Origin: Betaproteobacteria bacterium
GTDB taxonomy: Bacteria; Pseudomonadota; Gammaproteobacteria; Burkholderiales; Usitatibacteraceae
Assembly: GCA_016791265.1 (NCBI GenBank)
Contig: JAEUMY010000001.1
Span: 32,882-96,881 of the forward strand
DNA: 64,000 nt
Direction of reading: 5' to 3'
Shown: piece after piece, positions 9,923 to 64,000 of the stretch
Layout of the letters: every line of letters starts with the position of its first letter
How positions within the stretch are numbered: position 1 is the stretch's first letter
The notes under the pieces: generated by a model
Databases searched by the model: none
What the model was told of the DNA's origin: nothing
The model's input: only the letters and a program-made list of their open reading frames with translations
Made by a program: the position numbers and the translations under genes

Positions 9923-10551
9923 GCCGTCGCGTTCGGAAACCGCTCAAGCAACCGGGCTGGGTGCCGAGGCGCCACGCGCCATGCGTTCGGAATGGGCGGA
10001 TTATCGCACAGGGCCTTGTAGACACTCGCGGCGAAGAGGCCGCCATCAGCCATGCCGATGCTCGCGCAACCGGCGAGATACCGGTTGTCACTTTCACGCA
10101 TGTAGGCGGCAAGACCCGCCCAGAGCAGCGTCATCACAGCGCCCGAGCGATGATCCGGATGCACACATGAGCGCCCCACCTCGACCAGCGTATCGCGAAT
10201 ATTCGCAAGGGCGCCAAGCTGAAACTCCGTCTCGGCGTAGTAGCCGCCCGCTGCGCGCGCGGCATGCGGAGGAAGAATTCGATAAGTGCCCACCACTGCG
10301 AGGCTCTCGGTGTCGCGAACAATGAGGTGATCGCAGTAGGCATCGAAGTGGTCGATATCCAGACCTACGCGAGTCGAGGCTTCGGGAAGCCGCGCGCCGA
10401 GTTCGTTCGCGAACACCTGATAGCGCAGCGCCTGCGCCTCCTGCACTTCCGACTCGGAGCCTGCCAGTCCGATGCGATAGCGGCCTGCGCGGCCGCTCGA
10501 CTCCGACGCGCCGCTGTCAGGGCGCAGATGGGAAAGATCTTCTTGACGCAT
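9733..10551 (-). CDS. olsB: GNAT-type N-acyltransferase, ornithine lipid synthase OlsB-like
   Basis: The segments LRYQVFANELGA...DHFDAYCDHLIVRD...GRSCVHPDHRSG match the OlsB / N-acyl amino acid synthase family. The gene is paired with a PlsC-type gene. Confidence 0.8.
   Translation of the reverse strand: MRQEDLSHLRPDSGASESSGRAGRYRIGLAGSESEVQEAQALRYQVFANELGARLPEASTRVGLDIDHFDAYCDHLIVRDTESLAVVGTYRILPPHAARAAGGYYAETEFQLGALANIRDTLVEVGRSCVHPDHRSGAVMTLLWAGLAAYMRESDNRYLAGCASIGMADGGLFAASVYKALCDNPPIPNAWRVAPRHPARLLERFPNATACPIARMPPLIKGYMRVGAHICGEPAWDADFNTADLFLLLPMERMSTRYTQHFRMTPAPQKAA
10195..10206. repeat. GCGAATATTCGC palindrome, copy 1
   Basis: Perfect 12-mer inside olsB, read as A-N-I-R (LANIRDT). 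Confidence 0.95.
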
Positions 10552-10644
10552 GGCACCCCCGTACGACGATACGGGGGCACCTTAGGTCACGACGATGACG
10601 CCGCCGTGACGGTCATGTGAAACTGCCGTGACGGCACTCGGCGA

Positions 10645-11103
10645 TCAGAAGCGAGATACGCGCGTGGCGCCTTGTCCGGACAGCACGCGAACCCGGTCAC
10701 CCACGCGGAATTGCTCGTCGGCCTCCTGCGTCACGGCGATGAGTTTGCCGCTGTCCAGTTTCACCGTGACCTCGATGCCCTTCCGGTCCGCGTTGGACTT
10801 TTCGATGGATTGGCCGATGATTCCGCCCACCACCGCGCCCGCGACGGCGCCGGCGACCGAGCCGCGGCCTTTGCCGACTTCGCTTCCGGCAATGCCGCCC
10901 AGGACGGCGCCCGTCGCCGTGCCAACACCGGTTTCGCTGCCGTCGATGCGCACATCGCGGACGCTTTCCACCACGCCCATGCGCACGGTCTGTTCGCCAC
11001 GCACTTGGCTGCGTGTGTAGTCGCCGCCGCCGAGACCGCGTTGCGCGCAACCACCCAGTGCCACCACGGCGCACACCGCCAAGCCGATTGCTTTCAGGTT
11101 CAT
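10645..11103 (-). CDS. glycine-zipper outer membrane lipoprotein (SlyB/Pcp family)
   Basis: I trimmed the ORF to MNLKAIGLAVCAVVALGGC, a signal peptide plus lipobox. The glycine zipper GAVLGGIAGSEVGKGRGSVAGAVAGAVVGGIIG follows. Confidence 0.85.
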   Translation of the reverse strand: MNLKAIGLAVCAVVALGGCAQRGLGGGDYTRSQVRGEQTVRMGVVESVRDVRIDGSETGVGTATGAVLGGIAGSEVGKGRGSVAGAVAGAVVGGIIGQSIEKSNADRKGIEVTVKLDSGKLIAVTQEADEQFRVGDRVRVLSGQGATRVSRF

Positions 11104-11113
11104 GAGTTTCTCC

Positions 11114-12150: not shown

Positions 12151-12162
12151 GCGAATATTCGC
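12151..12162. repeat. GCGAATATTCGC palindrome, copy 2
   Basis: Intergenic, between the DUF3426 gene stop and the PfkB-kinase start. It extends to the 16-bp palindrome TTGCGAATATTCGCAA (12149-12164). Confidence 0.95.
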
Positions 12163-16649: not shown

Positions 16650-16661
16650 GCGAATATTCGC
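16650..16661. repeat. GCGAATATTCGC palindrome, copy 3
   Basis: Intergenic, 1 nt beyond the TlpA-like stop codon (16663-16665) and upstream of aroQ. 14-bp form TGCGAATATTCGCA. Confidence 0.95.
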
Positions 16662-18106: not shown

Positions 18107-19019
18107 GCGCCTCAGCCACTTCGGCGCAAGACAATCCGGCCAACAGGTCGGCCACTGTCGGAAACGCCAGCCGAACGCCCAACTCATCCTTCAGCCGCCG
18201 ATTGGACAAGCGGCGCGATTCGCGCAGAAACGAAAGCAAGGCCGGCGGCAAGGTCTTCTCGGCTTCGCCGCGGCTGATGCGCCTTGGCCGGGGCAGGCCA
18301 AATCGATCCGCGACCAGATCAAAATAGTGGCCCATCCTCAATGGCGCGTCGTCGCAACAGTGATAGTTGCGCCCGTTTGATCCCCGAAACAGCGCGGCCA
18401 CCGTGGCCCGCGCCAAGTCATCGGCATGGATGTGATTGCTGTAGCTGTCTTCGTCTGCCCGCAGCGCCGGCGTGCCCGCCGTCAATCTGGCGAGCGGCAG
18501 ACGGTCTTTTGCATAAATGCCGGGCGCGCGCAGCACGCACTGCGAGCGCATGGCCGGCGCAGAGCGCATCCATCGCCTGAGCGCCCGCTCCGCATCGACC
18601 CGTCGCTTGGCGCGGTCGTTGGTGGGGCGAAGCGGCCGCGCCTCCGTCACCCACTCACCGCCGCAGTCGCCGTAAACACCGGTGGTGCTGAGGTAGACCA
18701 GACGCCGCGAACGCACGCCATGCGAATATTCGCGTCCGGAAGGGGTCTTAGAGAGAGCCGCGAGAAGGTTGCGCGTGCGCGTATCGACACGAAGGTGCGC
18801 GGGCGGCGGCGCCAGATGGATGACGCAGTCGGCCAACGCGGCGGCGCGCGCCAGGGTCGCCCTGTCGTCCAGGTCGCCGATCAGGGGCACCACACCCAGC
18901 GTGCGCAGTCGGTCGGCCTTCGCCGGATCGCGAATTAGGCCGTAGAGCCGGAAGCGCTTTGCGAGCAGTGGGGCCAGGCGCGCCGCCACATCCCCGAAGC
19001 CCACGATCAGTATTCGCAT
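18075..19019 (-). CDS. NAD-dependent epimerase/dehydratase (SDR family)
   Basis: Start at MRILIVGFGDVA (Rossmann fold). Its 3' end converges with and overlaps fxsA by 32 nt. Confidence 0.8.
   Translation of the reverse strand: MRILIVGFGDVAARLAPLLAKRFRLYGLIRDPAKADRLRTLGVVPLIGDLDDRATLARAAALADCVIHLAPPPAHLRVDTRTRNLLAALSKTPSGREYSHGVRSRRLVYLSTTGVYGDCGGEWVTEARPLRPTNDRAKRRVDAERALRRWMRSAPAMRSQCVLRAPGIYAKDRLPLARLTAGTPALRADEDSYSNHIHADDLARATVAALFRGSNGRNYHCCDDAPLRMGHYFDLVADRFGLPRPRRISRGEAEKTLPPALLSFLRESRRLSNRRLKDELGVRLAFPTVADLLAGLSCAEVAEALSARGDTRPR
18722..18733. repeat. GCGAATATTCGC palindrome, copy 4
   Basis: Inside the SDR epimerase gene, read as E-Y-S (GREYSHG). Confidence 0.95.
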
Positions 19020-19088: not shown

Positions 19089-20141
19089 ATGAACGCCGCC
19101 GTCGAAACCCCGCCCGCCACCACCTCCCGCGCCGTCCGCCTCCCCAGCGGCAACACCTTCCAGGTTGACGTCGGCGAGACCGTGCTCGCCGCCGCCATGC
19201 GTCAGAACATCGGGCTCCCCTACGGGTGCCGCAACGGCGCGTGCGGCTCATGCAAGGGCACCATCGTGTCAGGTGAGGTGGACTACGGCGCATATCAGGC
19301 GCGCACGCTCACTGATGCGGAAAAGGCGCAGGGCAAGGCGCTTTTCTGCTGCGCCAAACCCAAAACCGATCTTGTGCTCGATGTGCGTGAAATCAGCGCG
19401 GGCGACATTCAGGTTCGCACGTTGCCCTGCCGCGTCGAGAAGATCGACAAACTCGCGCACGATGTCGTGGCGCTGAAACTCCGGCTGCCAGCCAACGAGC
19501 GCCTGCAATTTCGCGCCGGGCAGTACATCGACATTCTCTTGAAAGACGGCAAGCGACGCAGCTTCTCCATGGCCAACGCGCCGCATGCCGACGAGTTCAT
19601 CGAGCTGCACATTCGCGCCGTTCCCGGGGGCACGTTCTCGCAGCACGTCATGCACGAGATGAAGGAGCGCGCGATCCTCCGCTTCGAAGGCCCGCTGGGC
19701 AGCTTCTGCCTCAACGAGGATTCCGACAAGCCCATCATCTTCATGGCGGGCGGCACGGGCTTCGCGCCGATCAAGGCCATCATCGAGCATGCGCTGCACG
19801 CCCACATCGACCGCCAGATGGTGCTGTACTGGGGGGCTCGCTCGCTGCGCGATCTGTATCTGCCCGACCTGCCGGCAAAATGGCAACGCGAATATTCGCA
19901 TCTCACATTCATTCCCGTGCTGTCCGATCCGCTGCCCGAGGACCATTGGCAGGGTCGCACCGGGCTGGTCCATCAAGCCATCCTGGACGACTTCTCCGAC
20001 ATGGCGGGCTACGAGGTCTATGCCTGCGGCGCCCCCATCATGATCGAGGTGGGCCAGCGGGCATTTGCGGCGCGGGGCCTGCCGCCGGAAGCATTCTTCG
20101 CAGACTCGTTCACCTACGCCGCCGCACCCGCCGGCGTCTGA
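19089..20141 (+). CDS. 2Fe-2S ferredoxin / FNR-type NAD(P)H oxidoreductase (AscD/Fre-like)
   Basis: Plant-type cluster motif CRNGACGSCK...C, an FAD motif RSFSMA, and an NAD motif MAGGTGFAP. Confidence 0.85.
   Translation: MNAAVETPPATTSRAVRLPSGNTFQVDVGETVLAAAMRQNIGLPYGCRNGACGSCKGTIVSGEVDYGAYQARTLTDAEKAQGKALFCCAKPKTDLVLDVREISAGDIQVRTLPCRVEKIDKLAHDVVALKLRLPANERLQFRAGQYIDILLKDGKRRSFSMANAPHADEFIELHIRAVPGGTFSQHVMHEMKERAILRFEGPLGSFCLNEDSDKPIIFMAGGTGFAPIKAIIEHALHAHIDRQMVLYWGARSLRDLYLPDLPAKWQREYSHLTFIPVLSDPLPEDHWQGRTGLVHQAILDDFSDMAGYEVYACGAPIMIEVGQRAFAARGLPPEAFFADSFTYAAAPAGV
19888..19899. repeat. GCGAATATTCGC palindrome, copy 5
   Basis: Inside the ferredoxin-reductase gene, read as E-Y-S (QREYSHL). 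Confidence 0.95.
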
Positions 20142-20707: not shown

Positions 20708-20719
20708 GCGAATATTCGC
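20708..20719. repeat. GCGAATATTCGC palindrome, copy 6
   Basis: Intergenic, occupying -15..-4 relative to the argC ATG (20723). 14-bp form. Confidence 0.95.
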
Positions 20720-23592: not shown

Positions 23593-23604
23593 GCGAATAT
23601 TCGC
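23593..23604. repeat. GCGAATATTCGC palindrome, copy 7
   Basis: Intergenic, 19 nt upstream of the response-regulator ATG and just before its GGAGAG SD. Confidence 0.95.
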
Positions 23605-24313: not shown

Positions 24314-25945
24314 TTGAAGTTCCTGTTTTCCATTCGCGGCAAACTCCTCCTGGTCTCGTTGGCGCTCCTCGCGATTCCGGTGGTGGGCTATCGCTTCGTC
24401 ACCCACATGGAAGCCTTCCTGCGTGAAAGCCAGGAGGAGGCGCTGGTGGGCACCACGCGCGCGATCGCGGCGTCCCTGTCCGAGCGCCCCGGCCTTTTCA
24501 CGCGCCGCGATACGACGCCGGAGGATGCCGCCGAGCTGGAACGAAGGCAGATCGTCGCGCTCTTTGGCGGCTCCGACCCCGAGGCTGTGGCCACCCTGGG
24601 GGGCGCCTATCAGCCTTCGCCCGACATCGAGCGCACGCTGGAGCTGCTCGGCCGCAGCGCGGCACGCATCTGGGTGGTGGATTCGGCGTCCCGCGTCCGC
24701 GGGCTGTCGGGTTCGCTGAAGCCAAAGCGTGCGGAGGCCGCGAGCGAGGCGGCCGATGCCTATCGCCCGTTGAGTCGCGCGCTGGTCAGGCTGTTGCGAT
24801 TGCCCACCGGCGATGCCAAGGATGATCCGGAGCTCGGCCAGCGTGCGGTGATGGCCCAGGTGGATCGCGCGTTGATCGGCGCACCGTCGGCCGTGTGGCG
24901 CTACACCCGCGACCGCCAGGGCGTGGTGCTCTCCGCGGCCCAGCCGGTGTGGGCGGGCGATGACATCGTCGGCGCGGTGGTGGTGGAGGAAACCACCGGC
25001 GCCATCCAGCTATTGAAGCTTGAAGCGCTGGAAAATCTCCTCACCATCACGCTCATCGTGTTCATCGCGGGTTTCGTCACGCTCATCCTGTTCGCGTGGC
25101 GGCTGGCCGCGCGGGTGCGCACGCTCGGGCGCGCCGCCGACGCCGCCATCGACGCCCAGGGCCGCATCCGCGGCGACTTGGCGCCGTCCGACGCGAGCGA
25201 CGAGCTGGGCGAACTCTCGCGCAATCTCGCCGCGACCGTGCGACGGCTGAAAGACTACAACCAGCATCTGGAGAGCTTGGCCGCGCGGCTGTCGCACGAG
25301 TTGCGCACCCCGGTCGCCGTGGTGCGCTCGTCACTCGACAATCTGAAGCTCCAGTCCGTGTCGCCGGAGGCCACGGTGTACATTGAGCGGGCCGACATCG
25401 GCGTGCAACGGCTATCGACTTTGATCGGGCGCCTTTCGGAGGCCACGCAGCTTGAGCGCTTCCTGCAAGGGACCGAGCGCGAGACGTTTGATCCGGGTGA
25501 AGTCATCGCCGGTTGCATCGAAGGTTATCGCGCGACATTCCCCTCGCGAATATTCGCATTCACCAACGAGGTCGCCGGGCCGACACTGGTCGGCGTGCCC
25601 GACGCCATCGCGCAGCTTCTGGACAAGCTCGTTGCCAACGCCATCGACTTTCACGTCGCCGGCACACCCATCGACATTCGGCTCGCCCGCGCTGGGCGCC
25701 ATCTCGTGCTCACCGTGAGCAACGAGGGGCCGCTCTTGCCAGCCGGTTCTTCGGCCACCTTGTTCTCATCCATGGTTTCTCATCGCGCGGGGGCCAGCGA
25801 AGAGGGCGGGCATTTGGGAATGGGGCTTTACATCGTGCGCCTGATCGCCGAGTACCACGGCGGATTTCCCGAAGCCGCCAATCGCGCCGATGGCCGCGGC
25901 GTCGAGATCCGGGTTTGGCTCTCGCCTGGCAGTGGCGCCGCGTGA
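24314..25945 (+). CDS. sensor histidine kinase (periplasmic sensor, HAMP, HisKA, HATPase)
   Basis: The TTG start abuts the regulator's stop codon. Two TM segments, the H-box LSHELRTPV, the N-box region, and the G-box GMGLYIV. Confidence 0.9.
   Translation: MKFLFSIRGKLLLVSLALLAIPVVGYRFVTHMEAFLRESQEEALVGTTRAIAASLSERPGLFTRRDTTPEDAAELERRQIVALFGGSDPEAVATLGGAYQPSPDIERTLELLGRSAARIWVVDSASRVRGLSGSLKPKRAEAASEAADAYRPLSRALVRLLRLPTGDAKDDPELGQRAVMAQVDRALIGAPSAVWRYTRDRQGVVLSAAQPVWAGDDIVGAVVVEETTGAIQLLKLEALENLLTITLIVFIAGFVTLILFAWRLAARVRTLGRAADAAIDAQGRIRGDLAPSDASDELGELSRNLAATVRRLKDYNQHLESLAARLSHELRTPVAVVRSSLDNLKLQSVSPEATVYIERADIGVQRLSTLIGRLSEATQLERFLQGTERETFDPGEVIAGCIEGYRATFPSRIFAFTNEVAGPTLVGVPDAIAQLLDKLVANAIDFHVAGTPIDIRLARAGRHLVLTVSNEGPLLPAGSSATLFSSMVSHRAGASEEGGHLGMGLYIVRLIAEYHGGFPEAANRADGRGVEIRVWLSPGSGAA
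25546..25557. repeat. GCGAATATTCGC palindrome, copy 8
   Basis: Inside the histidine kinase gene, read as R-I-F-A (PSRIFAFT). Confidence 0.95.
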
Positions 25946-26047: not shown

Positions 26048-26575
26048 ATGCGAATATTCGCGCTGATGTGCAGCACCATTTTCGGCGTTGCCGCGCTGGC
26101 TGAGGCGCAGACCGCATCGCCACCGCCGAAGCCCTGCACCGCGCCGGAGGCCCGGCAATTCGACTTCTGGTTGGGCGACTGGACCGCGCGCTTCGCCGGC
26201 GGTGACGGCAAGACGGTGACCGGCCGCAACACCGTCGGCACGCTGTACGACGGTTGCGTCATCGTCGAGCAATTCGACGGCGCGCCCGGCTCGCCGCTGA
26301 AGGGCATGAGCCACTCCGTCTACGACGGCAACGCCAAGCGCTGGAAGCAAACCTGGGTGGACAACAGCGGCGGCTACCTCGACTTCATCGGCGGCTGGGA
26401 AGGCGACCGCATGATTCTCACCCGCGAAACCGAGCGCAACGGCCAACGCTTTCAGCAGCGCATGGTGTGGTTCGACATCAGCCGTGAGGCCTTCAACTGG
26501 CACTGGGAGCGCTCCGATGACGGCGGCAAGACGTGGAAAGTGAACTGGCGCATCGCGTATCAGCGCAGGCAATAG
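26048..26575 (+). CDS. secreted protein of unknown function (DUF1579-like beta-barrel?)
   Basis: Signal peptide MRIFALMCSTIFGVAALAEAQ and GGGAGGG SD. The DUF family assignment is tentative. Confidence 0.6.
   Translation: MRIFALMCSTIFGVAALAEAQTASPPPKPCTAPEARQFDFWLGDWTARFAGGDGKTVTGRNTVGTLYDGCVIVEQFDGAPGSPLKGMSHSVYDGNAKRWKQTWVDNSGGYLDFIGGWEGDRMILTRETERNGQRFQQRMVWFDISREAFNWHWERSDDGGKTWKVNWRIAYQRRQ
26050..26061. repeat. GCGAATATTCGC palindrome, copy 9
   Basis: Overlaps a start codon: ATG CGA ATA TTC GCG gives MRIFA, the first residues of a signal peptide. Confidence 0.95.
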
Positions 26576-31458: not shown

Positions 31459-31470
31459 GCGAATATTCGC
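31459..31470. repeat. GCGAATATTCGC palindrome, copy 11
   Basis: Occupies -14..-3 relative to the hemC start codon (31454-31456, minus strand). Confidence 0.95.
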
Positions 31471-31975: not shown

Positions 31976-32098
31976 GTCGCATAGGCACACGAAACAGTCG
32001 GGTATGCCGCTCTGGATCATTGCTGCGCTGCGGTAAACTCGTTATTGCCCACCCGTGCGGGTGGCGATCTGGCCCGTTCATGAGAGCGAATCGTCGCA

Positions 32099-45960: not shown

Positions 45961-46796
45961 GAACGTACGCCTACCGCATCATCAACGTCTTCACGCGGGG
46001 CGGGACGCTGACCGGGAATCCGCTCTGTGTGTTCGAAAACGGCGAGGGGCTCTCCGACGACGAGATGCAGGCGCTGGCGTTGCAGTTCAACTTGTCCGAA
46101 ACGACGTTCATTTTGCCGTCAGACAAGGCGAATGCCCGGGTGCGGATCTTCACCCCGGCCTATGAAATGCCGTTCGCCGGTCATCCCACGCTGGGCACGG
46201 CGCATGTGGTCAACGCGCTGCGGAACGCAGGCGGCGTGCTGAAGCTGGAGATGAAGGCGGGTGTCATTCCGGTTGCCTTTGATGGCACGCGTTGGGCGCT
46301 CTCGGCCAACGCGCCGCGCTGGCGCGAAGTCGCGGAGTCGCGCGAGTTTCTCGCCGACATGCTGGGCCTGCCGGTCGCGGCCCTCGGTGAGCGTCCGCTG
46401 TGGGTCAACGCGGGCAAGGAGCAACTGGTGATCCCGCTGACCTCGCCGGACCACGTGCGTGCCGTGAAGCCCAAGACTGATCCGTTCTGGCGATTGCAGA
46501 GCGAAGACGGCCAGAGCATGGCCTATGTCTTCGCGCCGCAGGACGACCACACGATTGTCTGTCGCTTCTTCTTCCCCAAGGCCCCGGCGATTCTGGAAGA
46601 CCCGGCAACAGGCTCGGCCTGTTCCAACCTCGGCGGCTGGTTCGTGGCCATGCGGCACGGACCACAAGCGTTAACGGTGTTGCAGGGCGATCAAGTCGGG
46701 CGCCCCTCCACGCTCTTCCTGCGCGTGGACGAGCAAGGGCGAATATTCGTCGGGGGCGGCGTTGTCGAACTGGGTGCCGGTGTCATCAACCTGTGA
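45957..46796 (+). CDS. PhzF-family isomerase
   Basis: NVFT...GNPLCVF...LSETTF... PhzF signature. Confidence 0.85.
   Translation: MRTYAYRIINVFTRGGTLTGNPLCVFENGEGLSDDEMQALALQFNLSETTFILPSDKANARVRIFTPAYEMPFAGHPTLGTAHVVNALRNAGGVLKLEMKAGVIPVAFDGTRWALSANAPRWREVAESREFLADMLGLPVAALGERPLWVNAGKEQLVIPLTSPDHVRAVKPKTDPFWRLQSEDGQSMAYVFAPQDDHTIVCRFFFPKAPAILEDPATGSACSNLGGWFVAMRHGPQALTVLQGDQVGRPSTLFLRVDEQGRIFVGGGVVELGAGVINL
46739..46750. repeat. one-mismatch variant GCGAATATTCGT
   Basis: Inside the PhzF-family gene (QGRIFVGG). The last base is T instead of C. Confidence 0.7.
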
Positions 46797-47846: not shown

Positions 47847-49736
47847 ATGCCCGAGTTTGTGTTTTACGAAGAAGATGGCGGCTTCAAGTCGGGCAGCGTG
47901 ATGTCCGACATCGGCACCTCCTTGCAAGTCGAAGCCGTCTCCGGCAAGCGGAGCAAGATCAAGTCGGGCCACGTGTTGCTCCGCTTCGCCTCGCCCGGCC
48001 TCGTCGAATTCGCGCAAGCCTCGCAGGCGCGGGCCGATGAAATCGACCCTGACTTTCTCTGGCAAGTCTGCGGCCCGGACGAGTTCGGCTTCGCCGATCT
48101 CGCCCACGACTATTACGGTCATGCGCCCAGCGCGGTGGAAGCGGCCGCTGTCGCCATCAAGCTGCACGCGAGCCCGATGTACTTCTACAAGAAAGGAAAG
48201 GGCCGCTACAAGGCGGCGCCGGAGGAGAATCTCAAGGCCGCGCTCGCCTCGTTAGAGAAGAAGCAGAGGCAGGCCGAGCAGATCGCCACTTGGGTGGCAG
48301 AGCTGAAGACCGGGCGCTGTCCGGACGCGCTCAAGTCGCAGGTCACCATGCTGCTCTACAAGCCGGACCGCAACACGCTGGAAATGAAGGCGCTGGAGCA
48401 GGCTTGCGCCGAGACCGGACTGACACCGGTGCGGCTGCTGGCGTCGACCGGCGCGCTGACGTCACACCATGACCATCACCTGAAGCGCTTTCTCGTCGAG
48501 TATTTCCCCGAGGGGCGAGACGCCGACGTGAAGGTGTCACTCAGCGAATATTCGCATCCGCCCTTTGCGAATATTCGCACCTTCAGCATCGACGACGAGG
48601 AAACCACCGAGATCGATGACGCATTTTCAGTGGTCGCGAGAGACGAGGGCGGGTGGCGCATTGGAGTGCATATCGCCGCGCCGGCCGTCCTGTTTGATCG
48701 CGAGTCCTCGCTGGAAGCGCTGGCGGCCAAGCGGCTTTCCACCGTCTATTTCCCCGGCGACAAGATCACCATGCTGCCGCCCAACGCCGTGGCGACTGGC
48801 ACGTTGGCGGCAGGCAACGAGGTGCCGGTCGTGTCGCTGTATGTGGACGTGAACGCGGACCTGTCTCTCGGCGCCACGCACTCGACCATCGAGCGCGTCA
48901 CCATCACTGCGAATATTCGCATTCAGGAATTGGCGGCGCGCTTCACGCCGGAACACCTCGCGGCCGATACCGTGCCAGGGGAGTTCGGCAGGGAACTGGC
49001 GGTGCTCTGGCGCATCGCCAATCAACTCAAGACATTGCGCGGCGATACCGCCGAGGATCTCACCGGCAAGGTGGACTACAACTTCGCAGTCGAGAATGAT
49101 CGCGTCGCCATCACCACGCGCCAACGCGGCAACCCCATTGACCTCACCGTGTCGGAGTGGATGATTTTCGCCAACAGCACCTGGGGCAAGCTCCTGGCCG
49201 ATCATGGGGTGGCGGCCATTTATCGGTCGCAGTCCAATGGCCGCACGCGCATGAGTCTGGAAGCGCTGCCGCACGAGGGGCTGGGTGTCGCCCAATACGC
49301 GTGGAGCACGTCGCCACTGCGCCGCTACGTCGATCTCGCCAACCAGCGCCAACTGGTGGCGCTGCTCTCCCAGCAAACGCCGCACTGGCCCAAGCGCTCG
49401 CCCGAGCTCGTCGAAGTCGCGCGCCGCTTCGAACTGACCTACGACGCGTACAACGAATTCCAGCGCGGCATGGAGCGCTATTGGGTGCTGCGCTGGTTTC
49501 ATCAGGAAGGCGCCACTCGTTTCGCCGCCACCGTGCTGCGCGAAGACCTGGTGCGGGCCAAAGAGCTGCCGCTGGTCACGCGCGTGCCCGGCATGACCGA
49601 TCAGCCGGCGGGAACGCATGTCTGGATCGAGGTCGCCGATATCGACTTCTGGGCGCCGGACGCCACCTTCCGCTTTGCTGGAAGAATCGACGGGCGAATC
49701 GAAGGCGGCAATGACAATGCAGTGCAATCCCCCTAG
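47847..49736 (+). CDS. RNB-domain exoribonuclease (RNase II family)
   Basis: RNB catalytic motifs (TEIDDAFSV, ...YFPGDKITMLP, SPLRRYVDL). Confidence 0.85.
   Translation: MPEFVFYEEDGGFKSGSVMSDIGTSLQVEAVSGKRSKIKSGHVLLRFASPGLVEFAQASQARADEIDPDFLWQVCGPDEFGFADLAHDYYGHAPSAVEAAAVAIKLHASPMYFYKKGKGRYKAAPEENLKAALASLEKKQRQAEQIATWVAELKTGRCPDALKSQVTMLLYKPDRNTLEMKALEQACAETGLTPVRLLASTGALTSHHDHHLKRFLVEYFPEGRDADVKVSLSEYSHPPFANIRTFSIDDEETTEIDDAFSVVARDEGGWRIGVHIAAPAVLFDRESSLEALAAKRLSTVYFPGDKITMLPPNAVATGTLAAGNEVPVVSLYVDVNADLSLGATHSTIERVTITANIRIQELAARFTPEHLAADTVPGEFGRELAVLWRIANQLKTLRGDTAEDLTGKVDYNFAVENDRVAITTRQRGNPIDLTVSEWMIFANSTWGKLLADHGVAAIYRSQSNGRTRMSLEALPHEGLGVAQYAWSTSPLRRYVDLANQRQLVALLSQQTPHWPKRSPELVEVARRFELTYDAYNEFQRGMERYWVLRWFHQEGATRFAATVLREDLVRAKELPLVTRVPGMTDQPAGTHVWIEVADIDFWAPDATFRFAGRIDGRIEGGNDNAVQSP
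48544..48555. repeat. GCGAATATTCGC palindrome, copy 18
   Basis: Inside the RNB ribonuclease gene, read as E-Y-S (LSEYSHP). It is 11 nt from copy 19. Confidence 0.95.
48567..48578. repeat. GCGAATATTCGC palindrome, copy 19
   Basis: Inside the RNB ribonuclease gene, read as A-N-I-R (PFANIRTF). 14-bp form. Confidence 0.95.
48909..48920. repeat. GCGAATATTCGC palindrome, copy 20
   Basis: Inside the RNB ribonuclease gene, read as A-N-I-R (ITANIRIQ). 14-bp form. Confidence 0.95.
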
Positions 49737-54753: not shown

Positions 54754-55187
54754 CCGGGGGATCGGGCACCGTTCTCGCCTTCGATTTTGGCGAGAAGCGC
54801 GTCGGCGTCGCCACGGGCGCCGCGAATATTCGCATTGCGCATCCACTGGAAACCATCCACGCCGAATCGAACGATGACCGCTTTACGCGCATCGCGACCC
54901 TGCTGGCCGAGTGGCAACCCACGCAATTGGTCGTGGGGCTGCCCACGCACATCGACGGCACGGAACATGAGCTGACCCGGCTTGCGCGCAAGTTCGCCAA
55001 TCGGCTCAATGGCCGCTTCAACCTTCCAGTCGCGCTGGTTGACGAGCGGCTCACATCCGCCGAAGCCGAAGAACGCTTGCGCGAAGTGGGCATCACCGGT
55101 CGCGGGCAGAAGGCGCATGTGGATGCCGTGGCCGCGCAATCCATTCTGCAATCCTGGTTCGATCAACATCATGACCAAACTACCTGA
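54750..55187 (+). CDS. ruvX: Holliday junction resolvase-like protein RuvX (YqgF)
   Basis: LAFDFGEKRVGVA...VVGLP...DERLTS, the YqgF pattern. Confidence 0.9.
   Translation: MTGGSGTVLAFDFGEKRVGVATGAANIRIAHPLETIHAESNDDRFTRIATLLAEWQPTQLVVGLPTHIDGTEHELTRLARKFANRLNGRFNLPVALVDERLTSAEAEERLREVGITGRGQKAHVDAVAAQSILQSWFDQHHDQTT
54822..54833. repeat. GCGAATATTCGC palindrome, copy 21
   Basis: Inside ruvX, read as A-N-I-R (GAANIRIA). Confidence 0.95.
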
Positions 55188-58681: not shown

Positions 58682-60742
58682 ATGAATCCCTTGCTCGATT
58701 TTTCCGGTCTTCCCCGTTTCAATGCTGTTCGCGCCGAGCATGTGCAGCCGGCCGTCGAACAACTCATCATCGAAGGCCGTGCGGCCGTCGAGGCTGCGGT
58801 GGTGGAAACGACGCCGCCCACCTGGGACAATTTCGTGCGGCCGCTGGATGATGCCGGCGAGCGTTTGTCCCGCGCCTGGGGTCAGGTGTCGCATCTCAAC
58901 GCGGTGATGAATTCGCCCGAGCTGCGCGATGCGTACAACGCCATGCTGCCGGTGCTGACCCAGTACTACACCGAGCTGGGCCAGGACGAACGCCTCTATG
59001 CCAAGTACAAGGCGCTCCGCGCCTCCAGCGAATATTCGCAGTTGTCCGATGCGCAGAAGAAAACGCTGGAAAACGAGCTGCGTGATTTCCGCCTCTCCGG
59101 CGCGGAGTTGCCCGAGGCCGAGAAGGCCCGCTTCAAGGCCTTGCAGGAAGAGCTCTCCACGCTTTCATCGCGCTTCAATGACAACGTGCTGGATGCGACC
59201 AACGACTTCGCGCTGTACGTCGCTGACGCACACCATCTGGCTGGCCTGCCCGACGATGTGAAGCAGGTGGCCAAGGAGGCGGCGGAGAAGGACGGCAAGC
59301 CCGGCTGGAAGCTCACGCTGCACATGCCTTGCTACCTGCCGGTGATGCAGTACGCCGATCATCGGCCGCTGCGCGAGCAGCTCTATCGCGCCTATGTGAC
59401 CCGTGCGTCCGACCAGTCGCTGGCGGACAAAGCGAAGGACTGGGACAACACTGCGAATATTCGCAATCTGCTGAAGCTCCGCCAGGAGTCAGCCGAGCTG
59501 CTGGGCTTTGCCAATTTCGCCGAGCTGTCGCTCGCCACCAAAATGGCGCGCACGCCTGCGGAGGTGGTGGGCTTCCTGCGCGAGCTGGGGGCCAAGGCCA
59601 AACCCTATGCCGAGCGCGACATGCGGGAACTGACGGATTACGCCCGGCGCGAGCTCGGCATGCCCGATGTGCAGGCCTGGGACATTCCCTACGTGAGCGA
59701 GAAACTGCGTGTGGCCAAATATGCGTTCTCCGATCAAGAGGTGAAGCAGTACTTCCCCGAGCCGGTGGTGCTGGACGGCATGTTCCGCGTGGTGAAGTCC
59801 ATCTTCGGCATCGAGGTGCGTCCAGCCACGGCCGAGACCTGGCATGCTGATGTGCGCTTCTTCGACGTGCTGAACGAGGCGGGCGAGCGCATCGGCCAGT
59901 TCTTCCTTGATCTCTACGCCCGCGACAAGAAGCGCGGCGGTGCGTGGATGGATGATGTGATGGCTCGCCGTCGCGTGGGCAACGCCGTGCAGATTCCGGT
60001 GGCGTACCTCACCTGCAATTTCTCCGCACCGGTGGGTGGCAAGCCGGCACTGTTCACCCACGACGAAGTCATCACCCTGTTCCACGAGTTCGGCCACGGG
60101 CTGCATCACCTGCTGACCCAGGTCGATGAGCTGGCCGTGTCCGGCATCAGCGGCGTGGAATGGGATGCGGTCGAACTGCCCAGCCAGTTCATGGAGAACT
60201 TCTGCTGGGAGTGGGAGGTGCTGAAGCACATGACGAAACACGTCGATTCCGGTGAGTCGCTACCGCGCGCGCTGTTCGACAAGATGCTGGCCGCCAAGAA
60301 TTTCCAGAATGGCATGGGCTTCGTGCGGCAATTGGAGTTCGCGCTCTTCGACATGCGCCTGCATGCCGACTTTGACGTGTTGAATGGCGACATGCTGGCG
60401 CTGCTGGCCGATGTGCGCCGCGAGGTGGCGGTCATCAAGCCGCCCGAGTGGAATCGCTTCCCGCATCAGTTCGGACACATTTTCGGGGGTGGCTACGCAG
60501 CGGGCTACTACAGCTACAAGTGGGCGGAAGTGCTGTCCGCCGACGCCTACGCCGCGTTCGAGGAGCATCCCGGGGGCGTGCTGAACCGCGAGGTCGGCCG
60601 CAAGTTTCAGATGGAGGTGCTGGCAGCCGGCGGCGCGCGCCCGGCCATGGCGTCATTCAAGGCGTTTCGCGGGCGCGAGCCGTCCACCGCCGCGCTCATC
60701 AGGCACAATGGAATGGATGAACCGCTCGCCATGGCCGCCTGA
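58682..60742 (+). CDS. prlC: oligopeptidase A (M3 family zinc metallopeptidase)
   Basis: Start at MNPLLDFSGLPRF. The zinc motif HEFGHGLHH is present. The track ORF (58274) begins upstream inside the neighbouring gene. Confidence 0.9.
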   Translation: MNPLLDFSGLPRFNAVRAEHVQPAVEQLIIEGRAAVEAAVVETTPPTWDNFVRPLDDAGERLSRAWGQVSHLNAVMNSPELRDAYNAMLPVLTQYYTELGQDERLYAKYKALRASSEYSQLSDAQKKTLENELRDFRLSGAELPEAEKARFKALQEELSTLSSRFNDNVLDATNDFALYVADAHHLAGLPDDVKQVAKEAAEKDGKPGWKLTLHMPCYLPVMQYADHRPLREQLYRAYVTRASDQSLADKAKDWDNTANIRNLLKLRQESAELLGFANFAELSLATKMARTPAEVVGFLRELGAKAKPYAERDMRELTDYARRELGMPDVQAWDIPYVSEKLRVAKYAFSDQEVKQYFPEPVVLDGMFRVVKSIFGIEVRPATAETWHADVRFFDVLNEAGERIGQFFLDLYARDKKRGGAWMDDVMARRRVGNAVQIPVAYLTCNFSAPVGGKPALFTHDEVITLFHEFGHGLHHLLTQVDELAVSGISGVEWDAVELPSQFMENFCWEWEVLKHMTKHVDSGESLPRALFDKMLAAKNFQNGMGFVRQLEFALFDMRLHADFDVLNGDMLALLADVRREVAVIKPPEWNRFPHQFGHIFGGGYAAGYYSYKWAEVLSADAYAAFEEHPGGVLNREVGRKFQMEVLAAGGARPAMASFKAFRGREPSTAALIRHNGMDEPLAMAA
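59028..59039. repeat. GCGAATATTCGC palindrome, copy 22
   Basis: Inside prlC, read as E-Y-S (SSEYSQL). Confidence 0.95.
59453..59464. repeat. GCGAATATTCGC palindrome, copy 23
   Basis: Inside prlC, read as A-N-I-R (NTANIRNL). 14-bp form. Confidence 0.95.
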
Positions 60743-60791
60743 TCGGATGTGCTGAAGAGAAAGCGGCCCGAATTCACTGGAGGAGGTGATC

Positions 60792-61430: not shown

Positions 61431-62194
61431 AGCTCGTCACCTGGAATGTCAACAGTCTCAACGTGCGCCTGCCGCACGTCGAGGACTGGTTGAAGGCGCA
61501 CCAACCGGAAGCCCTCTGTCTGCAGGAAATCAAGATGGAGGACGCCAGGTTTCCGCGCGAGGCCATCGAGTCGCTCGGCTATCACGTGGTGTTCGATGGT
61601 CAGAAGACGTACAACGGCGTCGCCATCATCGCCAAGTCGAGGCCGGAGGATGTCGCGCGTGGCATTGCGGGTTTTGCCGACGAGCAAAGGCGCGTCATCG
61701 CGGCGACCGTCAACGGTGTGCGCGTGGTGTGTGTTTATGTTCCCAACGGCCAGAGTCTTGATTCGGACAAGTATCAGTACAAGCTCGCCTGGCTGAAGGC
61801 GCTCACCGGCTGGCTGGGCGGTGAGTTGAAGCTTTATCCAGATCTCGCGCTTCTTGGCGACTACAACATCGCGCCGGAAGATCGCGATGTGCATGACCCC
61901 AAGGCGTGGGAGGGTCAGGTGCTGGTGAGTGAGCCTGAACGCGCGGCATTTCGCGGCTTGCAGGCGCTGGGGCTCGCCGACAGCTTTCGTCTCTTCGATC
62001 AACCGGAGAAGAGCTTCACGTGGTGGGATTACCGCATGAATGGCTTCAAGCGCAATCTTGGGCTTCGCATTGACCATGTGATGCTGTCCGCCTCCCTGGT
62101 GGCGCGGTGCCAGGCGTCGTCCATCGATATCGAGCCGCGCAAACTCGAACGCCCCTCGGATCACACCCCCGCCTTCGCCGTCGTCGCCGACTGA
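61427..62194 (+). CDS. xthA: exodeoxyribonuclease III
   Basis: GTG start. MKLVTWNVNSLNVR...CLQEIK...GDYNIAP...DHVM...SDHTP motifs. Confidence 0.95.
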   Translation: MKLVTWNVNSLNVRLPHVEDWLKAHQPEALCLQEIKMEDARFPREAIESLGYHVVFDGQKTYNGVAIIAKSRPEDVARGIAGFADEQRRVIAATVNGVRVVCVYVPNGQSLDSDKYQYKLAWLKALTGWLGGELKLYPDLALLGDYNIAPEDRDVHDPKAWEGQVLVSEPERAAFRGLQALGLADSFRLFDQPEKSFTWWDYRMNGFKRNLGLRIDHVMLSASLVARCQASSIDIEPRKLERPSDHTPAFAVVAD

Positions 62195-62204
62195 CCTGCT
62201 CGCC

Positions 62205-64000
62205 ATGCCCATCCAGCAGCGCGATCTTTTCTCGTCCACGTCCATCCGCGCCGCGGGCGGTTTCGGCAAGGTCGTGTCGGGCAGTGAGCGGCCGCTGCGC
62301 GATCTGGTGAAACGCGCCGCCGTGGCCACCGATGCCGATGTCGCGATGCTGTCTTTCATTGATGGCGACATCGAGTGGTGCAAGTGCTGCGAAGGTGCGG
62401 CGGTCGGCGAGTGGTCGCGCTCGGCCAGCTTGTGGGCGCCGCTGCGCGAGGGCATTGACGGTGAGAACACGCCCATCAATCCCGACGTGCGAGTCATGCC
62501 GGCGCTGGGCGATCTTTCGGGTTGGCGCAACCATCCGCTGCGTGCCGAAGCGCCCGAGCTCACCTCGGCTGCGATGGCCCCGGTCGTGGATGGCGATGGG
62601 CTGGTGGCGGGCATGCTCGCCGTGTTCAGCCTTGGCCCTCGCGAATATTCGCAACCGGAGCGGGAGGCGCTGGCCAATCTCGCGCGGCTGGTCTCCACGC
62701 GCCTGATGTTGCAACGTTCGTCAGCGGACGACACCAAGCCGCGCGCCCAGCCGCGAACGGACGCGCTGCTCCAACCCGCGCGCCAGCGCGCGCGTGCGGA
62801 GTCAGCGCCGCCGCCCGCGCCGATGGCGGCGGACGCGGAGCAGATCGATCAAGGCGCGCTGGCAAGCGAGCTCGCGCGGCTCAACCAGCAACTTGAAGGA
62901 GAGATGGCGAGTCGGCAGGATGCGCAGTCGCAGCTCGAGCGCGAGCGTTCGTTCTCGGATGCCGCCATCGCGGCGCTGCCGGGCGCGTTCTATATGTTCA
63001 ATCAGGCCGGTCGGATGCTCCGCTGGAACCGCAATTTCACTGACGCTTCAGGCTATTCCGATGCCGAGGTGACTGAAAAGAAGCCCGTCGACTTCGTCAT
63101 TCCGGAGGATCAGTCGCAAGTCGTCAAGGCCATTGCCCGCGTGTTCAGCGAGCGGCGCGAAGTGTCGATCGAGGCGCGTTTCCTCCACAAGTCGGGTGAA
63201 GTGGCGCCCTATCTTTTCACCGGGCGGCCGGCCGAGCTCAACGGCGAGACCGTGCTCATCGGCGTCGGTCGAGACATCAGCGACCGCAAACGCGCCGAGC
63301 AGCAGCTTTTGCAAACCAAGGAGCGCCTGCATCTAGCGCTCACCGGGTCCGGTCTCGCCATGTGGGACTGGGATCTCAGCACCAACACCGTCTACTTCAA
63401 CGAAGGCTGGGGATCGCTGCTCGGTGCGGCTGCGCGCGAAGCCGTCCATCGCGGCACCGAGGTTTTCGACTGGAACCACCCGGACGACAAGGAGATTTTC
63501 CGCAGCGCGCTGAATGCGGCCATGAAGGGCGACTCGGAGTTCTTCACCGCCGAGTACCGTGTGCAGAATGACCGGGGCGAGTGGGTCTGGATCCACACCC
63601 GCGGAAAGGTCACCGAACGAGATGACCAGGGACTCGCGACGCGCATGACCGGCGTGTCGGAAAACATCACCGAGCGCAAGGTTGCCGAGGAGCGCGCCGA
63701 GTTTCTCGCCACACGCGATCCGCTCACAGGCCTGCCCAACCGCATGCTGCTGAATGATCGGCTGGAGCAGGGCATCGCCGCCGCCGCGCGGTCGAAGAAG
63801 AAGCTTGCCTTCATGTTCATCGACCTGGATCGGTTCAAGTTCATCAACGACTCGCTGGGCCACCACATTGGCGACGAACTCTTGAAGCAGGTGGCGACGC
63901 GGCTGGCGTCCTGCGTCCGCGCCACCGACACCGTCGCCCGACTGGGCGGCGACGAGTTCGCGGTGATCCTCGCGGACTTGAAGGACGAGCAGGGCGTGAG
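62205..64000 (+). CDS. GAF-like / PAS / PAS / GGDEF signalling protein (partial, continues past window end)
   Basis: My own translation from the ATG at 62205 gives MPIQQRDLFSS.... Two PAS modules (...FYMFNQAGRMLRWN..., ...WDWDLSTNTVYFNEGW...) are followed by the GGDEF domain (DPLTGLPNR...RLGGDEF). There is no stop in the window, so it is absent from the ORF track. Confidence 0.85.
   Translation, partial: MPIQQRDLFSSTSIRAAGGFGKVVSGSERPLRDLVKRAAVATDADVAMLSFIDGDIEWCKCCEGAAVGEWSRSASLWAPLREGIDGENTPINPDVRVMPALGDLSGWRNHPLRAEAPELTSAAMAPVVDGDGLVAGMLAVFSLGPREYSQPEREALANLARLVSTRLMLQRSSADDTKPRAQPRTDALLQPARQRARAESAPPPAPMAADAEQIDQGALASELARLNQQLEGEMASRQDAQSQLERERSFSDAAIAALPGAFYMFNQAGRMLRWNRNFTDASGYSDAEVTEKKPVDFVIPEDQSQVVKAIARVFSERREVSIEARFLHKSGEVAPYLFTGRPAELNGETVLIGVGRDISDRKRAEQQLLQTKERLHLALTGSGLAMWDWDLSTNTVYFNEGWGSLLGAAAREAVHRGTEVFDWNHPDDKEIFRSALNAAMKGDSEFFTAEYRVQNDRGEWVWIHTRGKVTERDDQGLATRMTGVSENITERKVAEERAEFLATRDPLTGLPNRMLLNDRLEQGIAAAARSKKKLAFMFIDLDRFKFINDSLGHHIGDELLKQVATRLASCVRATDTVARLGGDEFAVILADLKDEQGV
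62641..62652. repeat. GCGAATATTCGC palindrome, copy 24
   Basis: Inside the N-terminal GAF-like region of the GGDEF gene, read as E-Y-S (GPREYSQP). Confidence 0.95.

Follow-up and report, generated by a model that had tools for sequence, protein, structure and literature searches.

How does a single 12-nucleotide palindrome come to be written into the proteins of a betaproteobacterium in all three reading frames, and into its spacers as well? The window, i.e. the whole stretch of 64,000 nucleotides analysed here (host of 64% GC), contains 24 exact copies of the perfect palindrome GCGAATATTCGC between 10195 (first base of the first copy) and 62652 (last base of the last), or ~0.4 copies per kb. 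None is expected from 100 dinucleotide-preserving shuffles (0.00), and the excess over base composition is ~10^4-fold (~0.0024 copies expected at 63.7% GC, by our own arithmetic), while only two one-mismatch variants were found. Of the 48 half-sites, 33 have A as the flanking base at +1 and one has C; the 12-mer thus forms the strict core within the 14-bp dyad TGCGAATATTCGCA (T-GCGAATATTCGC-A). Copies are spaced more evenly than random (CV.65, P=.016, over 23 intervals), and a polysaccharide cluster of low GC content, at the window's left end, has zero copies (P=.011).

The word marks a narrow, genus-like clade and is near-absent or absent in sister lineages. Indeed, at least five species-level genomes, all from a single uncultured clade of betaproteobacteria, carry 0.33–0.50 copies per kb, the word-rich relatives, compared through pieces of ~20 kb of each genome, being L081, L082/L329, L083 and L084 (amino-acid identity to the window.85–.90). 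By contrast, L085 has one copy in 13 kb, and the search for the word returned no copy in L330, L086, L087 and L088, nor in 80 other betaproteobacterial loci.

A sequence-only reading of this DNA had counted the same 24 copies, with the same coordinates and genes, and placed 18 of them in coding sequences, six being intergenic; a recount also returns its frame ratio of 9:6:3 for ANIR, xEYSx and RIFA, respectively. The coding copies, with their state in relatives and outgroups, are the following:

10195..10206, olsB (9733-10551, minus strand), ANIR; exact in L081 and L082; outgroups QHLR, gap-free.
18722..18733, SDR-family gene (18075-19019, minus strand), R-EYS-H; exact in L081, GCGAATGTTCGC in L082.
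19888..19899, ferredoxin/flavin reductase gene (19089-20141, plus strand), R-EYS-H; exact in L081 and L082; outgroups AEHPN, gap-free.
25546..25557, histidine kinase gene (24314-25945, plus strand), S-RIFA, codons CGA ATA TTC; exact in L081, L082 and L329; outgroups RDLV or AELR, gap-free.
26050..26061, overlapping the start of ORF 26048-26575, M-RIFA; window-specific, L081 having MRFNQ at equal length and a check of L082 and L329 finding it conserved in neither.
29037..29048, hemX (28641-29702, minus strand), ANIR; exact in L082 and L329; variable linker in outgroups, no gap at the word.
33374..33385, fused FAD/Fe-S oxidoreductase gene (32099-35977, plus strand), residue 426, ANIR; exact in L329; replaces a conserved KH[IV]R (K in 109, H in 105 and R in 120 of 120), gap-free.
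35765..35776, same oxidoreductase gene, residue 1223, ANIR; exact in L329; outgroups [DGA][KA]LR, gap-free.
39389..39400, HIT gene (39220-39660, plus strand), R-EYS-L; exact in L329, L083 and L084; outgroups R[AE]RLM, gap-free.
42243..42254, gshB (41457-42404, minus strand), ANIR; exact in L329, L083 and L084; AHTR opposite in E. coli GshB (1gsa), gap-free.
45666..45677, mpl (44602-45960, plus strand), Q-RIFA; exact in L329, L083 and L084; RILA in orthologues (R in 79, I in 78, L in 68 and A in 80 of 80), gap-free.
48544..48555, RNB-domain gene (47847-49736, plus strand), residue 233, S-EYS-H; exact in L083 and L084; series xDFSQ/AEFSQ to SEYSQ/REYSH, no indel.
48567..48578, same RNB gene, residue 241, ANIR; exact in L083, GCGGATGTGCAG (ADVQ) in L084, ANVR in L085.
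48909..48920, same RNB gene, residue 355, ANIR; exact in L083 and L084; outgroups ANLR (N in 24, L in 23 and R in 23 of 24), ANIR being seen only in relatives of at least 83% identity.
54822..54833, ruvX (54750-55187, plus strand), ANIR; exact in L083 and L084; LETR in L085.
59028..59039, prlC, S-EYS-Q; exact in L084, interrupted in L083 by an 84-nt in-frame structured insert; PDWSS in 4ka8, gap-free.
59453..59464, prlC, ANIR; DNTAIID in 4ka8 versus DNTANIR, no gap at the word; a site covered by no close relative.
62641..62652, GAF-PAS-GGDEF gene (62205 to beyond the window end, plus strand), R-EYS-Q; consensus P-R-E-L-S among 146 GAF homologues.

The intergenic copies are:

12151..12162, 20 nt upstream of the pfkB start (12130, minus strand); exact in L081 and L082 despite diverged, indel-bearing flanks.
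16650..16661, upstream of aroQ; window-specific, absent from L081 and L082 where it was looked for, L082 aligning straight through the site with no gap of 12 nt.
20708..20719, 3 nt upstream of the argC ATG (20723); the word, ACC and ATG are kept in L081 and L082.
23593..23604, 19 nt upstream of a response-regulator start (23624); exact in L081, L082 and L329.
31459..31470, upstream of the true hemC start, the hemC profile matching the maximal ORF only from residue 32 onwards; L329 has an exact copy at the orthologous site (9332).
41388..41399, ~10 nt upstream of a bidirectional terminator beside the gshB 3' end; at an equal position relative to the terminator in L084 (3794), absent from L083 and L329 where it was looked for.

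Three near-matches complete the picture:

33789..33800, one-mismatch GCGAATATTCGG in the oxidoreductase gene; conserved at L329 11706 in the orthologous gene, 415 nt from the residue-426 copy in both.
46739..46750, one-mismatch GCGAATATTCGT in a PhzF-like gene, RIFV; conserved in L083 (8808) and L084 (8841), GCGCATCTTTGT in L085.
32086..32097, two-mismatch GCGAATCGTCGC just upstream of the oxidoreductase start; probably a decaying copy of the word, L329 having GCGAATCTTCGC (9982, one mismatch) similarly placed right before its own oxidoreductase start, with orthology taken from position rather than alignment.

When aligned with orthologues from genomes that lack the word, 17 of the 18 coding copies fall in gap-free columns, so that the words were made by point substitution and not by insertion, as the sequence-only reading had argued. 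Orthologous 12-mers in word-free outgroups have on average 4.9 mismatches to the word versus 9.0 for the background (P<5e-6), and the ancestral peptides at word sites include RILA, ANLR, PRELS and KHIR. These comparisons indicate that words arose mostly at sites whose DNA and peptide were already near the word: across graded relatives of the RNB gene, ANLR and A[DN]V[QR] both lead to ANIR, and AEFSQ leads to SEYSQ, and in Mpl the outgroup codons CGC ATC CTC GCC are replaced by CGA ATA TTC GCA. Gains needed 3–6 substitutions and usually changed 1–3 residues per site, the oxidoreductase copy at residue 426 being the only one to override a conserved dipeptide (KH to AN); the RNB copy at residue 241 is, on sequence comparison, a recent gain.

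The claims that had been attached to this model fared unevenly. The E. coli YqgF segment given for ruvX was correct (in a gap-free alignment of 136 residues with 1nmn, GVAVGQRITGTARPL stands opposite GVATGAANIRIAHPL). Unchanged length holds for all coding copies except that of the SDR gene, which sits in a clade-specific loop of variable length around the word (CEYSQ, REYSQ, GEYSP and GECSR in relatives; shorter in outgroups). For mpl, the absence of extra residues is true of the word itself, RIFA abutting VLEPRSNT without a gap against 80 orthologues, but in the word-bearing clade four further residues (YKTP) stand immediately upstream; the coding copies of SDR and Mpl thus lie in or beside clade-specific insertions. 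At the GAF site, the 45 homologue rows shown (of 146) are all free of gaps and insertions at the word, and two additional columns within REYSQ stem from other sequences. The idea that copies settle at tolerant positions is incomplete, several standing in conserved look-alike peptides (RILA in Mpl, ANLR in RNB, PRELS in GAF). Such ancestral look-alikes in other codons had been named as evidence against the model; formally they are, but logically they strengthen substitution. Nothing demands gene conversion, the other origin that had been offered.

Once formed, the word is retained. Twenty of the 22 testable copies, coding and intergenic, occur at orthologous positions in other species, with 7/7, 7/9, 9/10, 7/8 and 7/8 retained in the individual comparisons (P about 1e-6 to 1e-8), a set that counts intergenic copies whose flanks are indel-ridden, against 5.7–15% of control 12-mers fully retained. 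Four-fold-site identity to the relatives is.50–.63 versus a distant-outgroup plateau of.46–.56, i.e. saturated. Most copies are old and kept across species rather than being generated continually. Word sites are all-or-none with almost no intermediates, an appearance owing to the fast decay of lost copies to ~5 mismatches; the one-mismatch variants deviate at a terminal base and are themselves conserved. The word also imposes rare codons (ATA, 1.9% of Ile; CGA, 6.4% of Arg; ATT, 20% of Ile). The frame-usage comparison that had been suggested gave an observed ANIR:xEYSx:RIFA usage of.50:.33:.17, between the.45:.13:.41 expected from peptide frequency and the.74:.24:.02 expected from codon cost, of which it is a compromise. 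The claimed constraint at the DNA level is borne out by the three frames and spacers, the rare codons and the 12/12 identity across species. Overall, the observation of the earlier reading is confirmed and its interpretation partly supported.

The word is best explained as a selectively maintained 14-bp dyad of the HIP1/USS kind. Each copy was built in place by point substitutions at near-word sites, its length unchanged, and has since been kept at 12/12 by purifying selection on DNA, or by a homogenising force equivalent to it, which prevails over codon preference and, at a few residues, over amino-acid preference. A protein that binds or processes DNA sequence-specifically, probably as a dimer, may read the dyad, which could serve as a self tag favouring uptake and/or recombination of conspecific DNA in natural transformation. 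The cellular role would be that of such a tag or of a nucleoid-protein site; a clade-specific, hyper-abundant word of the HIP1/USS/DUS kind that tags conspecific DNA is the reading we prefer, and we hold it to be somewhat probable. Exact conservation might also be the product of a strong and continuing sequence-specific bias in repair or conversion, without selection for a function. A small uncultured betaproteobacterial group has had a palindrome mutated into its genes and spacers about every 2–3 kb, and then kept unchanged across species, in a way that recalls the uptake sequences of Neisseria and Haemophilus and the cyanobacterial HIP1.

Other explanations have to be weighed against this one. 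A miniature mobile element or its footprint, adding four codons by in-frame insertion, is very improbable. In its favour, 12 nt would leave the frame intact, the window's SDR loop exceeds that of typical outgroups by exactly four residues, the additional Mpl residues are also four, and a separate 84-nt repeat is inserted within one L083 copy. However, the SDR loop varies by 9–12 residues among relatives, so that its length is simply unstable, the Mpl residues are not the word itself, and insertion is contradicted by gap-free alignments with up to 146 homologues, with precursor codons in the same columns and outgroup sites already near the word. Selection of ANIR, EYS and RIFA at the protein level, with DNA identity as a by-product, we consider the least credible of all. 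It could draw on the conserved look-alike peptides at some host sites, but one word yields three unrelated peptides, the six intergenic sites are equally conserved, similar outgroup peptides use other codons, and synonymous positions in the word are fixed on rare codons whereas four-fold sites elsewhere are saturated; intergenic copies and synonymous-site conservation contradict it.

Two further accounts bear on function. The dyad might bind an abundant nucleoid or chromosome-organising protein, with copies kept for architecture and unrelated to uptake, which we regard as rather unlikely. Strict-cored dyads of 14 bp are what dimeric DNA-binding proteins typically recognise, a predicted Shewanella operator contains the identical 12-mer core (PMC2532739), and the even spacing and conservation in coding and non-coding DNA would fit, as would the case for periodicity and architecture made for HIP1 by Xu et al. 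2018 (PMC5861425). Known architectural sites with such a shape, however, number tens per genome and not one per 2–3 kb, the motifs of abundant nucleoid proteins are degenerate, no candidate protein was identified in the ~20-kb genome pieces, and the account by itself leaves the copy-free, putatively acquired polysaccharide cluster unexplained. A functionless word driven by a mutational ratchet, e.g. methylation-directed or very-short-patch mismatch repair with a bias towards the word, as in Elhai's model of HIP1, has a still smaller chance. The terminal-base variants, as for HIP1 (PMC4390886), and the all-or-none sites would suit it, and so would a sharp clade boundary, through the acquisition of one enzyme; but HIP1 conservation is taken as selection and not replenishment (PMC5861425). 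Moreover, repair bias works only on near-matches whereas gains needed several substitutions, the one-mismatch variants stay conserved instead of being 'corrected', decaying copies occur, and 12–14 bp is long for a methyltransferase site.

Among known systems, parS, matS, SlmA and Noc sites are strict 12–16-bp dyads of dimeric proteins, tolerated in genes and conserved, with ~10–100 per genome in confined regions. The clade word is some 10–100 times denser and, over 54 kb, shows no confinement to a region. USS of Pasteurellaceae and DUS of Neisseriaceae resemble it in density (~one per 1–2 kb; PMC2817400), in coding copies spread over several frames with a bias from codon preference (comparable frame and codon effects: Findlay & Redfield 2009, PMC2817400), in their peptide-tolerant sites, in their absence from recently acquired genes and in their lineage-specific 'dialects', and DUS also occur in Betaproteobacteria. 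Yet USS/DUS are asymmetric with many one-mismatch variants, whereas the clade word is a perfect palindrome without such a variant cloud, and they are defined by an uptake phenotype, DUS also by the ComP receptor.

HIP1 and the alternate HIPs of cyanobacteria (GCGATCGC; PMC5861425, PMC4390886) are likewise palindromic and massively over-represented, occur in all gene frames and in spacers with orthologous-site conservation beyond background (within and between ORFs; PMC5861425), are non-randomly spaced, have one-off variants that deviate at terminal bases and are also conserved, and show clade-specific replacement or absence; the identical outer half-sites GCGA...TCGC may be coincidence. HIP1 is, however, a GC-rich 8-mer found across a phylum, whereas the betaproteobacterial word is 12–14 bp long with an AT-rich centre, confined to a genus-like clade, of lower density and with far fewer one-off variants; and HIPs are tied to methyltransferases, whereas this word has no known cognate and is longer than usual methyltransferase sites. 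The reported spread of HIP1 by nucleotide substitution, for which Robinson et al. 1997 is cited in PMC4390886, parallels the origin proposed here, and HIP1 enhances transformation (bioRxiv 10.1101/2024.09.10.611283), a role in uptake or recombination now being proposed for it.

The 12-nt palindrome GCGAATATTCGC, hereafter the word, occurs 24 times between positions 10195 and 62652 of the window. Chance or base composition was rejected as its origin, 0.00 copies being found in 100 dinucleotide-preserving shuffles. It is the perfect 12-nt palindrome implied by the three peptides read from it, and the top palindrome both of the window (k=8, 10, 12 and 14) and of all word-rich relatives analysed (k=8, 10 and 12). 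ORF assignment, verified by GC at codon positions and by NCBIfam and Pfam, places 18 of the 24 copies (75%) in genes and the remaining six in intergenic DNA. Nine coding copies are read as Ala-Asn-Ile-Arg (ANIR), six as x-Glu-Tyr-Ser-x (xEYSx) and three as Arg-Ile-Phe-Ala (RIFA). The gene list, coding share and 9:6:3 frame distribution proposed in the sequence-only reading were all correct, the mapping having also settled the copies at 31459, which lies upstream of the hemC profile start, and 62641. The latter is hosted by a + strand GAF-PAS-GGDEF gene, which starts at 62205, runs out of the window and reads GPREYSQPE at the word. The 496-aa ORF 61247-62737(-) was rejected as its host, being antisense to real genes: DUF4124 (60786-61430), exonuclease III (61427-62194) and the GGDEF gene itself. 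A 130-codon upstream extension of the prlC ORF (58274-58663) is also without support from the family profile.

Copies are spaced more evenly than random (CV.65; P=.016). Intergenic DNA makes up 11.7% of the sequence and contains 6/24 copies, a mild excess (P=.053). The first 10.2 kb (1-10194) hold no copy (P=.011). Within it, positions 1-7300 form a polysaccharide-biosynthesis cluster of lower GC (.605), adjoining tRNA-Arg(CCG) at 7212-7288 (-) and including:

4212-5186: GT4
5244-6878: CapD-like gene
Three ORFs without a Pfam match

Given its lower GC, its role in polysaccharide synthesis and its tRNA-Arg neighbour, this cluster is plausibly recently acquired DNA.

A second repeated 12-mer, GGCGCCACCTGG, was rejected as a comparable case, since it merely encodes Asp-box repeats: three of its four copies (37026-38243, and 2186) encode ordinary D-[AG]-G-A-T-W repeats, which belong to a sortilin/BNR-like protein at 36132-39218. 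An RNA family was likewise rejected, the only Rfam match in the window being the tRNA. Two intergenic settings were recorded in passing. At 20708-20725, the arrangement of word, ACC and the ATG of argC is kept in three genomes; the word stands there in the Shine-Dalgarno place, and no Shine-Dalgarno sequence is evident. The copy at 41388 lies approximately 10 nt upstream of a bidirectional terminator at the junction of a fimW-like gene and gshB, as does the copy at 3794 of L084, a locus piece from a word-rich relative. A DUF3617 gene found between these two genes in L083, L084, L329 and L330 is absent from the window (41360-41457).

Each coding copy was compared with orthologues from word-free genomes.

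Coding copies against word-free orthologues
Mpl: 80 orthologues; RIFA opposite R-I-L-A (R79, I78, L68, A80 of 80); no gap
RNB, three sites: 24 locus orthologues and a graded protein series; no gap at any
Oxidoreductase, residue 426: 120 homologues; KH[IV]R opposite; no gap
Oxidoreductase, residue 1223: 120 homologues; [DGA][KA]LR opposite; no gap
ruvX: E. coli YqgF (1nmn); 136 residues without gap; segment GVAVGQRITGTARPL
gshB: E. coli GshB (1gsa); 308 residues without gap; AHTR opposite ANIR
prlC, two sites: oligopeptidase A (4ka8); no gap at either word
GAF domain (62641): 146 homologues; PREYS opposite consensus P-R-E-L-S
olsB, reductase, HIT, kinase, hemX, ORF 26048: fewer outgroups; no gap at word

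No length change was found at the word in 17 of the 18 coding copies, and the model of a mobile, inserting 12-mer was accordingly rejected. The claim that copies arise by substitution and not by insertion is thus upheld, precursor codons being in place, and the E. coli YqgF segment quoted in its support proved correct. Nor does the word behave like a REP/MITE-type element, whose copies are insertions and mostly intergenic. The exception is the SDR copy, which sits in a loop whose expansion is confined to the word-bearing clade; around the word, the length of this loop (18700-18760) differs among the three closest genomes. In Mpl (45650-45677) there is no gap at the word, but the word-bearing clade has four additional residues (YKTP) directly upstream of Q-RIFA. 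Two coding copies thus adjoin clade-specific length changes: either loops prone to indels are favoured by words, or indels are promoted locally by the palindrome itself. One word has itself been interrupted. At L083:21509-21608, orthologous to window 59028, the prlC word is split into GCGAATAT and TCGC by an 84-nt in-frame insert, which has a strong fold (MFE -52.5 kcal/mol) and is translated as 28 added residues. Of this insert, 45 nt recur in intergenic DNA of L083 (20360-20404) and 22 nt in L084; it is a small REP/MITE-like repeat that landed within the palindrome.

Codon-level comparison reveals what was replaced. In Mpl, CGC ATC CTC GCC became CGA ATA TTC GCA; at RNB site 355, GCG AAT CTG CGC or GCC AAC CTG CGC became GCG AAT ATT CGC; and the precursor at RNB site 241 is GCC AAC GTG CGC (ANVR). 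The RNB protein series serves as a time course: relatives of at most 72% identity all have ANLR, ANIR occurs only at 83% or above, and AEFSQ or xDFSQ precede SEYSQ or REYSH. At 11 sites, the corresponding 12-mer of the closest outgroup without the word has on average 4.9 mismatches to it, versus 9.0 for all 12-mers of the same loci (P<5e-6), indicating that words arose at places that resembled them beforehand in both DNA and peptide.

The idea that copies occupy tolerant positions therefore needs qualification: the host positions include variable ones, but also several conserved peptides in which it was enough to replace Leu or Val by Ile, or Leu by Phe or Tyr. To say that the word dictates tetrapeptides goes too far. 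Conserved residues were truly overridden once (KH to AN, in the oxidoreductase). Changes are usually conservative, of the kinds just named, and are paid for in rare codons: among Ile codons outside words, ATA accounts for 1.9% and ATT for 20%, and among Arg codons CGA accounts for 6.4%. Frame usage (.50:.33:.17) falls between the amino-acid expectation (.45:.13:.41) and the codon expectation (.74:.24:.02), a comparison that the sequence-only reading had called for; uptake sequences have been described as behaving in this way (PMC2817400). As such, the effect on coding frames is no novelty, and repeats the documented effect of DNA uptake sequences (USS/DUS); the precursor-to-product series reveal the extent to which protein sequence can yield to a constraint at the DNA level.

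Of greater interest are the exact conservation of sites across species and a sharp phylogenetic boundary. Relatives, which are uncultured MAGs, were reached via protein searches, with fragments of approximately 20 kb per genome.

Copies of the word in relatives, with amino-acid identity to the window
Word-rich (L081, L082/L329, L083, L084): identity.85-.90; 7-11 copies per 21-24 kb
Word-poor (L085): identity.73; 1 copy in 13 kb
Word-free (L330): identity.75; 0 in 19 kb
Word-free (L086, L087, L088): identity.56-.70; 0

Over approximately 150 kb in five genomes, density is 0.33-0.50 per kb. The word-rich genomes share 77-83% DNA identity with the window and are thus different species. Among other Betaproteobacteria, the word was found in 0/80 Mpl-anchored loci (approx. 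1.4 Mb) in a scan of genome contigs, the best Mpl identity being 70% and no close relative being included. The split between word-rich and word-poor or word-free genomes indicates that a single short branch saw the gain of the trait, or its strong amplification. The single exact copy of L085 (8571-8582) is intergenic, orthologous to no window copy, and expected by chance with a probability of approximately 4e-4 (our arithmetic from base composition); the system may be present at low density outside the word-rich clade. In viral and metagenome contigs, the matches listed for the 14-mer were single chance matches only, in loci of median GC.43-.46.

Between the window and word-rich relatives, identity at four-fold degenerate sites is.50-.63, close to the distant-outgroup plateau (.46-.56), so that synonymous sites are essentially saturated. 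Against this background, 20 of the 22 testable window copies are matched by the word at the orthologous place in one or more other species. Among them are five of the six intergenic copies, the flanks of several of which (12151, 23593) are full of indels. Across five comparisons, the word is fully retained in 78-100% of cases versus 5.7-15% for control 12-mers from the same alignments (P of approx. 1e-6 to 1e-8 per genome); the L083 copy orthologous to 59028 was scored as interrupted, not conserved, giving 7/8 in that genome. At the window-specific sites 16650 and 26050, alignments to relatives are highly diverged.

Flank analysis widened the dyad to T-GCGAATATTCGC-A, the outer base being A in 33/48 half-sites and C in 1/48. 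Only two one-mismatch sites occur in the window, at 33789-33800 (...CGG) and 46739-46750 (...CGT). Both are unchanged at the matching place in relatives. In each, the deviant base is the final one, at which the host protein requires a Val codon or one beginning with G. Such conserved variants, deviating only at the terminal base, suggest a functional core CGAATATTCG (a 10-11-mer) with preferred outer bases. Counting the window and its relatives, there are approximately four distinct one-off sites versus approximately 28 distinct exact sites; three of the four (33789, 46739 and orthologues) deviate at the last base and one (L082 10296) internally, although these numbers are small. Two-mismatch sites in the window number three versus approximately 2.3 expected by chance (our arithmetic).

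Sites that differ between species are few, and then differ by a large amount:

Second gshB site: word in L083, L084 and L329; GCGCGACGTCGC in the window
L083 14618: word in L083; GGCAGTACGCGC in the window
RNB 241: word in the window; GCGGATGTGCAG in L084

Upstream of the oxidoreductase start, L329 has one mismatch and the window two, probably reflecting decay of a copy. A copy once hit would be freed from the DNA-level constraint and would revert quickly to preferred codons and residues, which in our reading would make sites look all-or-none. It seems very improbable that, instead of base-by-base assembly, a sequence-writing process puts in and removes each site as a whole. That idea draws on presence and absence states that differ at approximately 5/12 positions in species only 13-19% diverged in DNA, on one- and two-mismatch intermediates at or near chance level, and on few one-off variants that are stable rather than transitional. 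Its candidate writers would be short-patch templated repair or conversion replacing approximately 12 nt at unchanged length, by an enzyme gained on the single branch parting the word-rich clade from its word-free sisters.

What is established is a hyper-abundant word specific to one clade, which arose by substitution and is kept by selection or by a sequence-specific force of similar strength. Selection on the peptides was rejected as the cause. Transcription-factor regulons and centromere-like dyads comprise few sites, in promoters or one region, unlike the word with its 24 sites in 52 kb, 18 of them intragenic. The role we prefer is that of a self-DNA tag for uptake or recombination, which would be read by a dimeric protein. 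Two other explanations are live: the word could be the site of a nucleoid protein, or it could be the product of a repair ratchet. HIPs, the iterated palindromes of cyanobacteria, are tied to methyltransferases that recognise the word or its core; by family, neither of the methyltransferases of the window, prmA and a class I SAM enzyme (26716-27393), acts on DNA. Exact conservation and a sharp boundary make the underlying system tractable. The on/off boundary is so sharp (amino-acid identity of approx..88 versus.75) that phyletic profiling of complete genomes could identify the responsible protein, and the long, strict dyad (TGCGAATATTCGCA) should serve easily as bait for a binding protein.

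A literature search found no description of the word. The sole lead was a predicted Shewanella operator, TGGCgaAtaTtcGCCA, which shares the 12-mer core but is flanked by bases that the copies of the window avoid (PMC2532739). The nearest counterparts of the word are HIP1 of cyanobacteria and USS/DUS. HIP1 is palindromic, conserved within and between ORFs, accompanied by terminal-base one-off variants and non-randomly spaced (PMC5861425, PMC4390886). Recent work showed that it increases the efficiency of transformation (bioRxiv 10.1101/2024.09.10.611283), and it has been proposed as an uptake signal (bioRxiv 10.64898/2026.06.24.733823). Like HIP1, the word is perfectly palindromic and exceeds its expected frequency by orders of magnitude, it lies in all ORF frames (9:6:3) and between ORFs (six copies), its sites are conserved between genomes beyond background, and its few one-off deviations fall mostly on a terminal base. 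The outer half-sites of the word (GCGA-ATAT-TCGC) are, perhaps by coincidence, those of HIP1 (GCGA-TCGC). The function of HIP1 is still debated after three decades and, to our knowledge, uptake sequences are known experimentally from few families only. USS/DUS are comparable in frame and codon effects, and may be so in density and in their absence from acquired genes (PMC2817400): they number hundreds to thousands of copies in the core genome, approximately one per kb, and are lacking in recently acquired DNA. In the fragments covered, the word has 0.33-0.50 copies per kb and none in the low-GC polysaccharide cluster. Its codon-explained frame bias, tolerated residues and origin without insertions also follow their pattern (PMC2817400).

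The differences are equally clear. HIP1 is a cyanobacterial 8-mer, whereas the word is a 12-14-mer in Betaproteobacteria; USS/DUS are asymmetric with abundant one-mismatch variants, whereas the word is a perfect palindrome without a cloud of one-offs. It is longer than either (12-14 bp), combines an AT-rich core with a genome rich in GC, is palindromic unlike USS/DUS and lies outside the cyanobacteria unlike HIPs. Therefore, the word works like HIP1 and USS/DUS without membership of either family, as an independent system of the HIP1/uptake-sequence kind in a different phylum.
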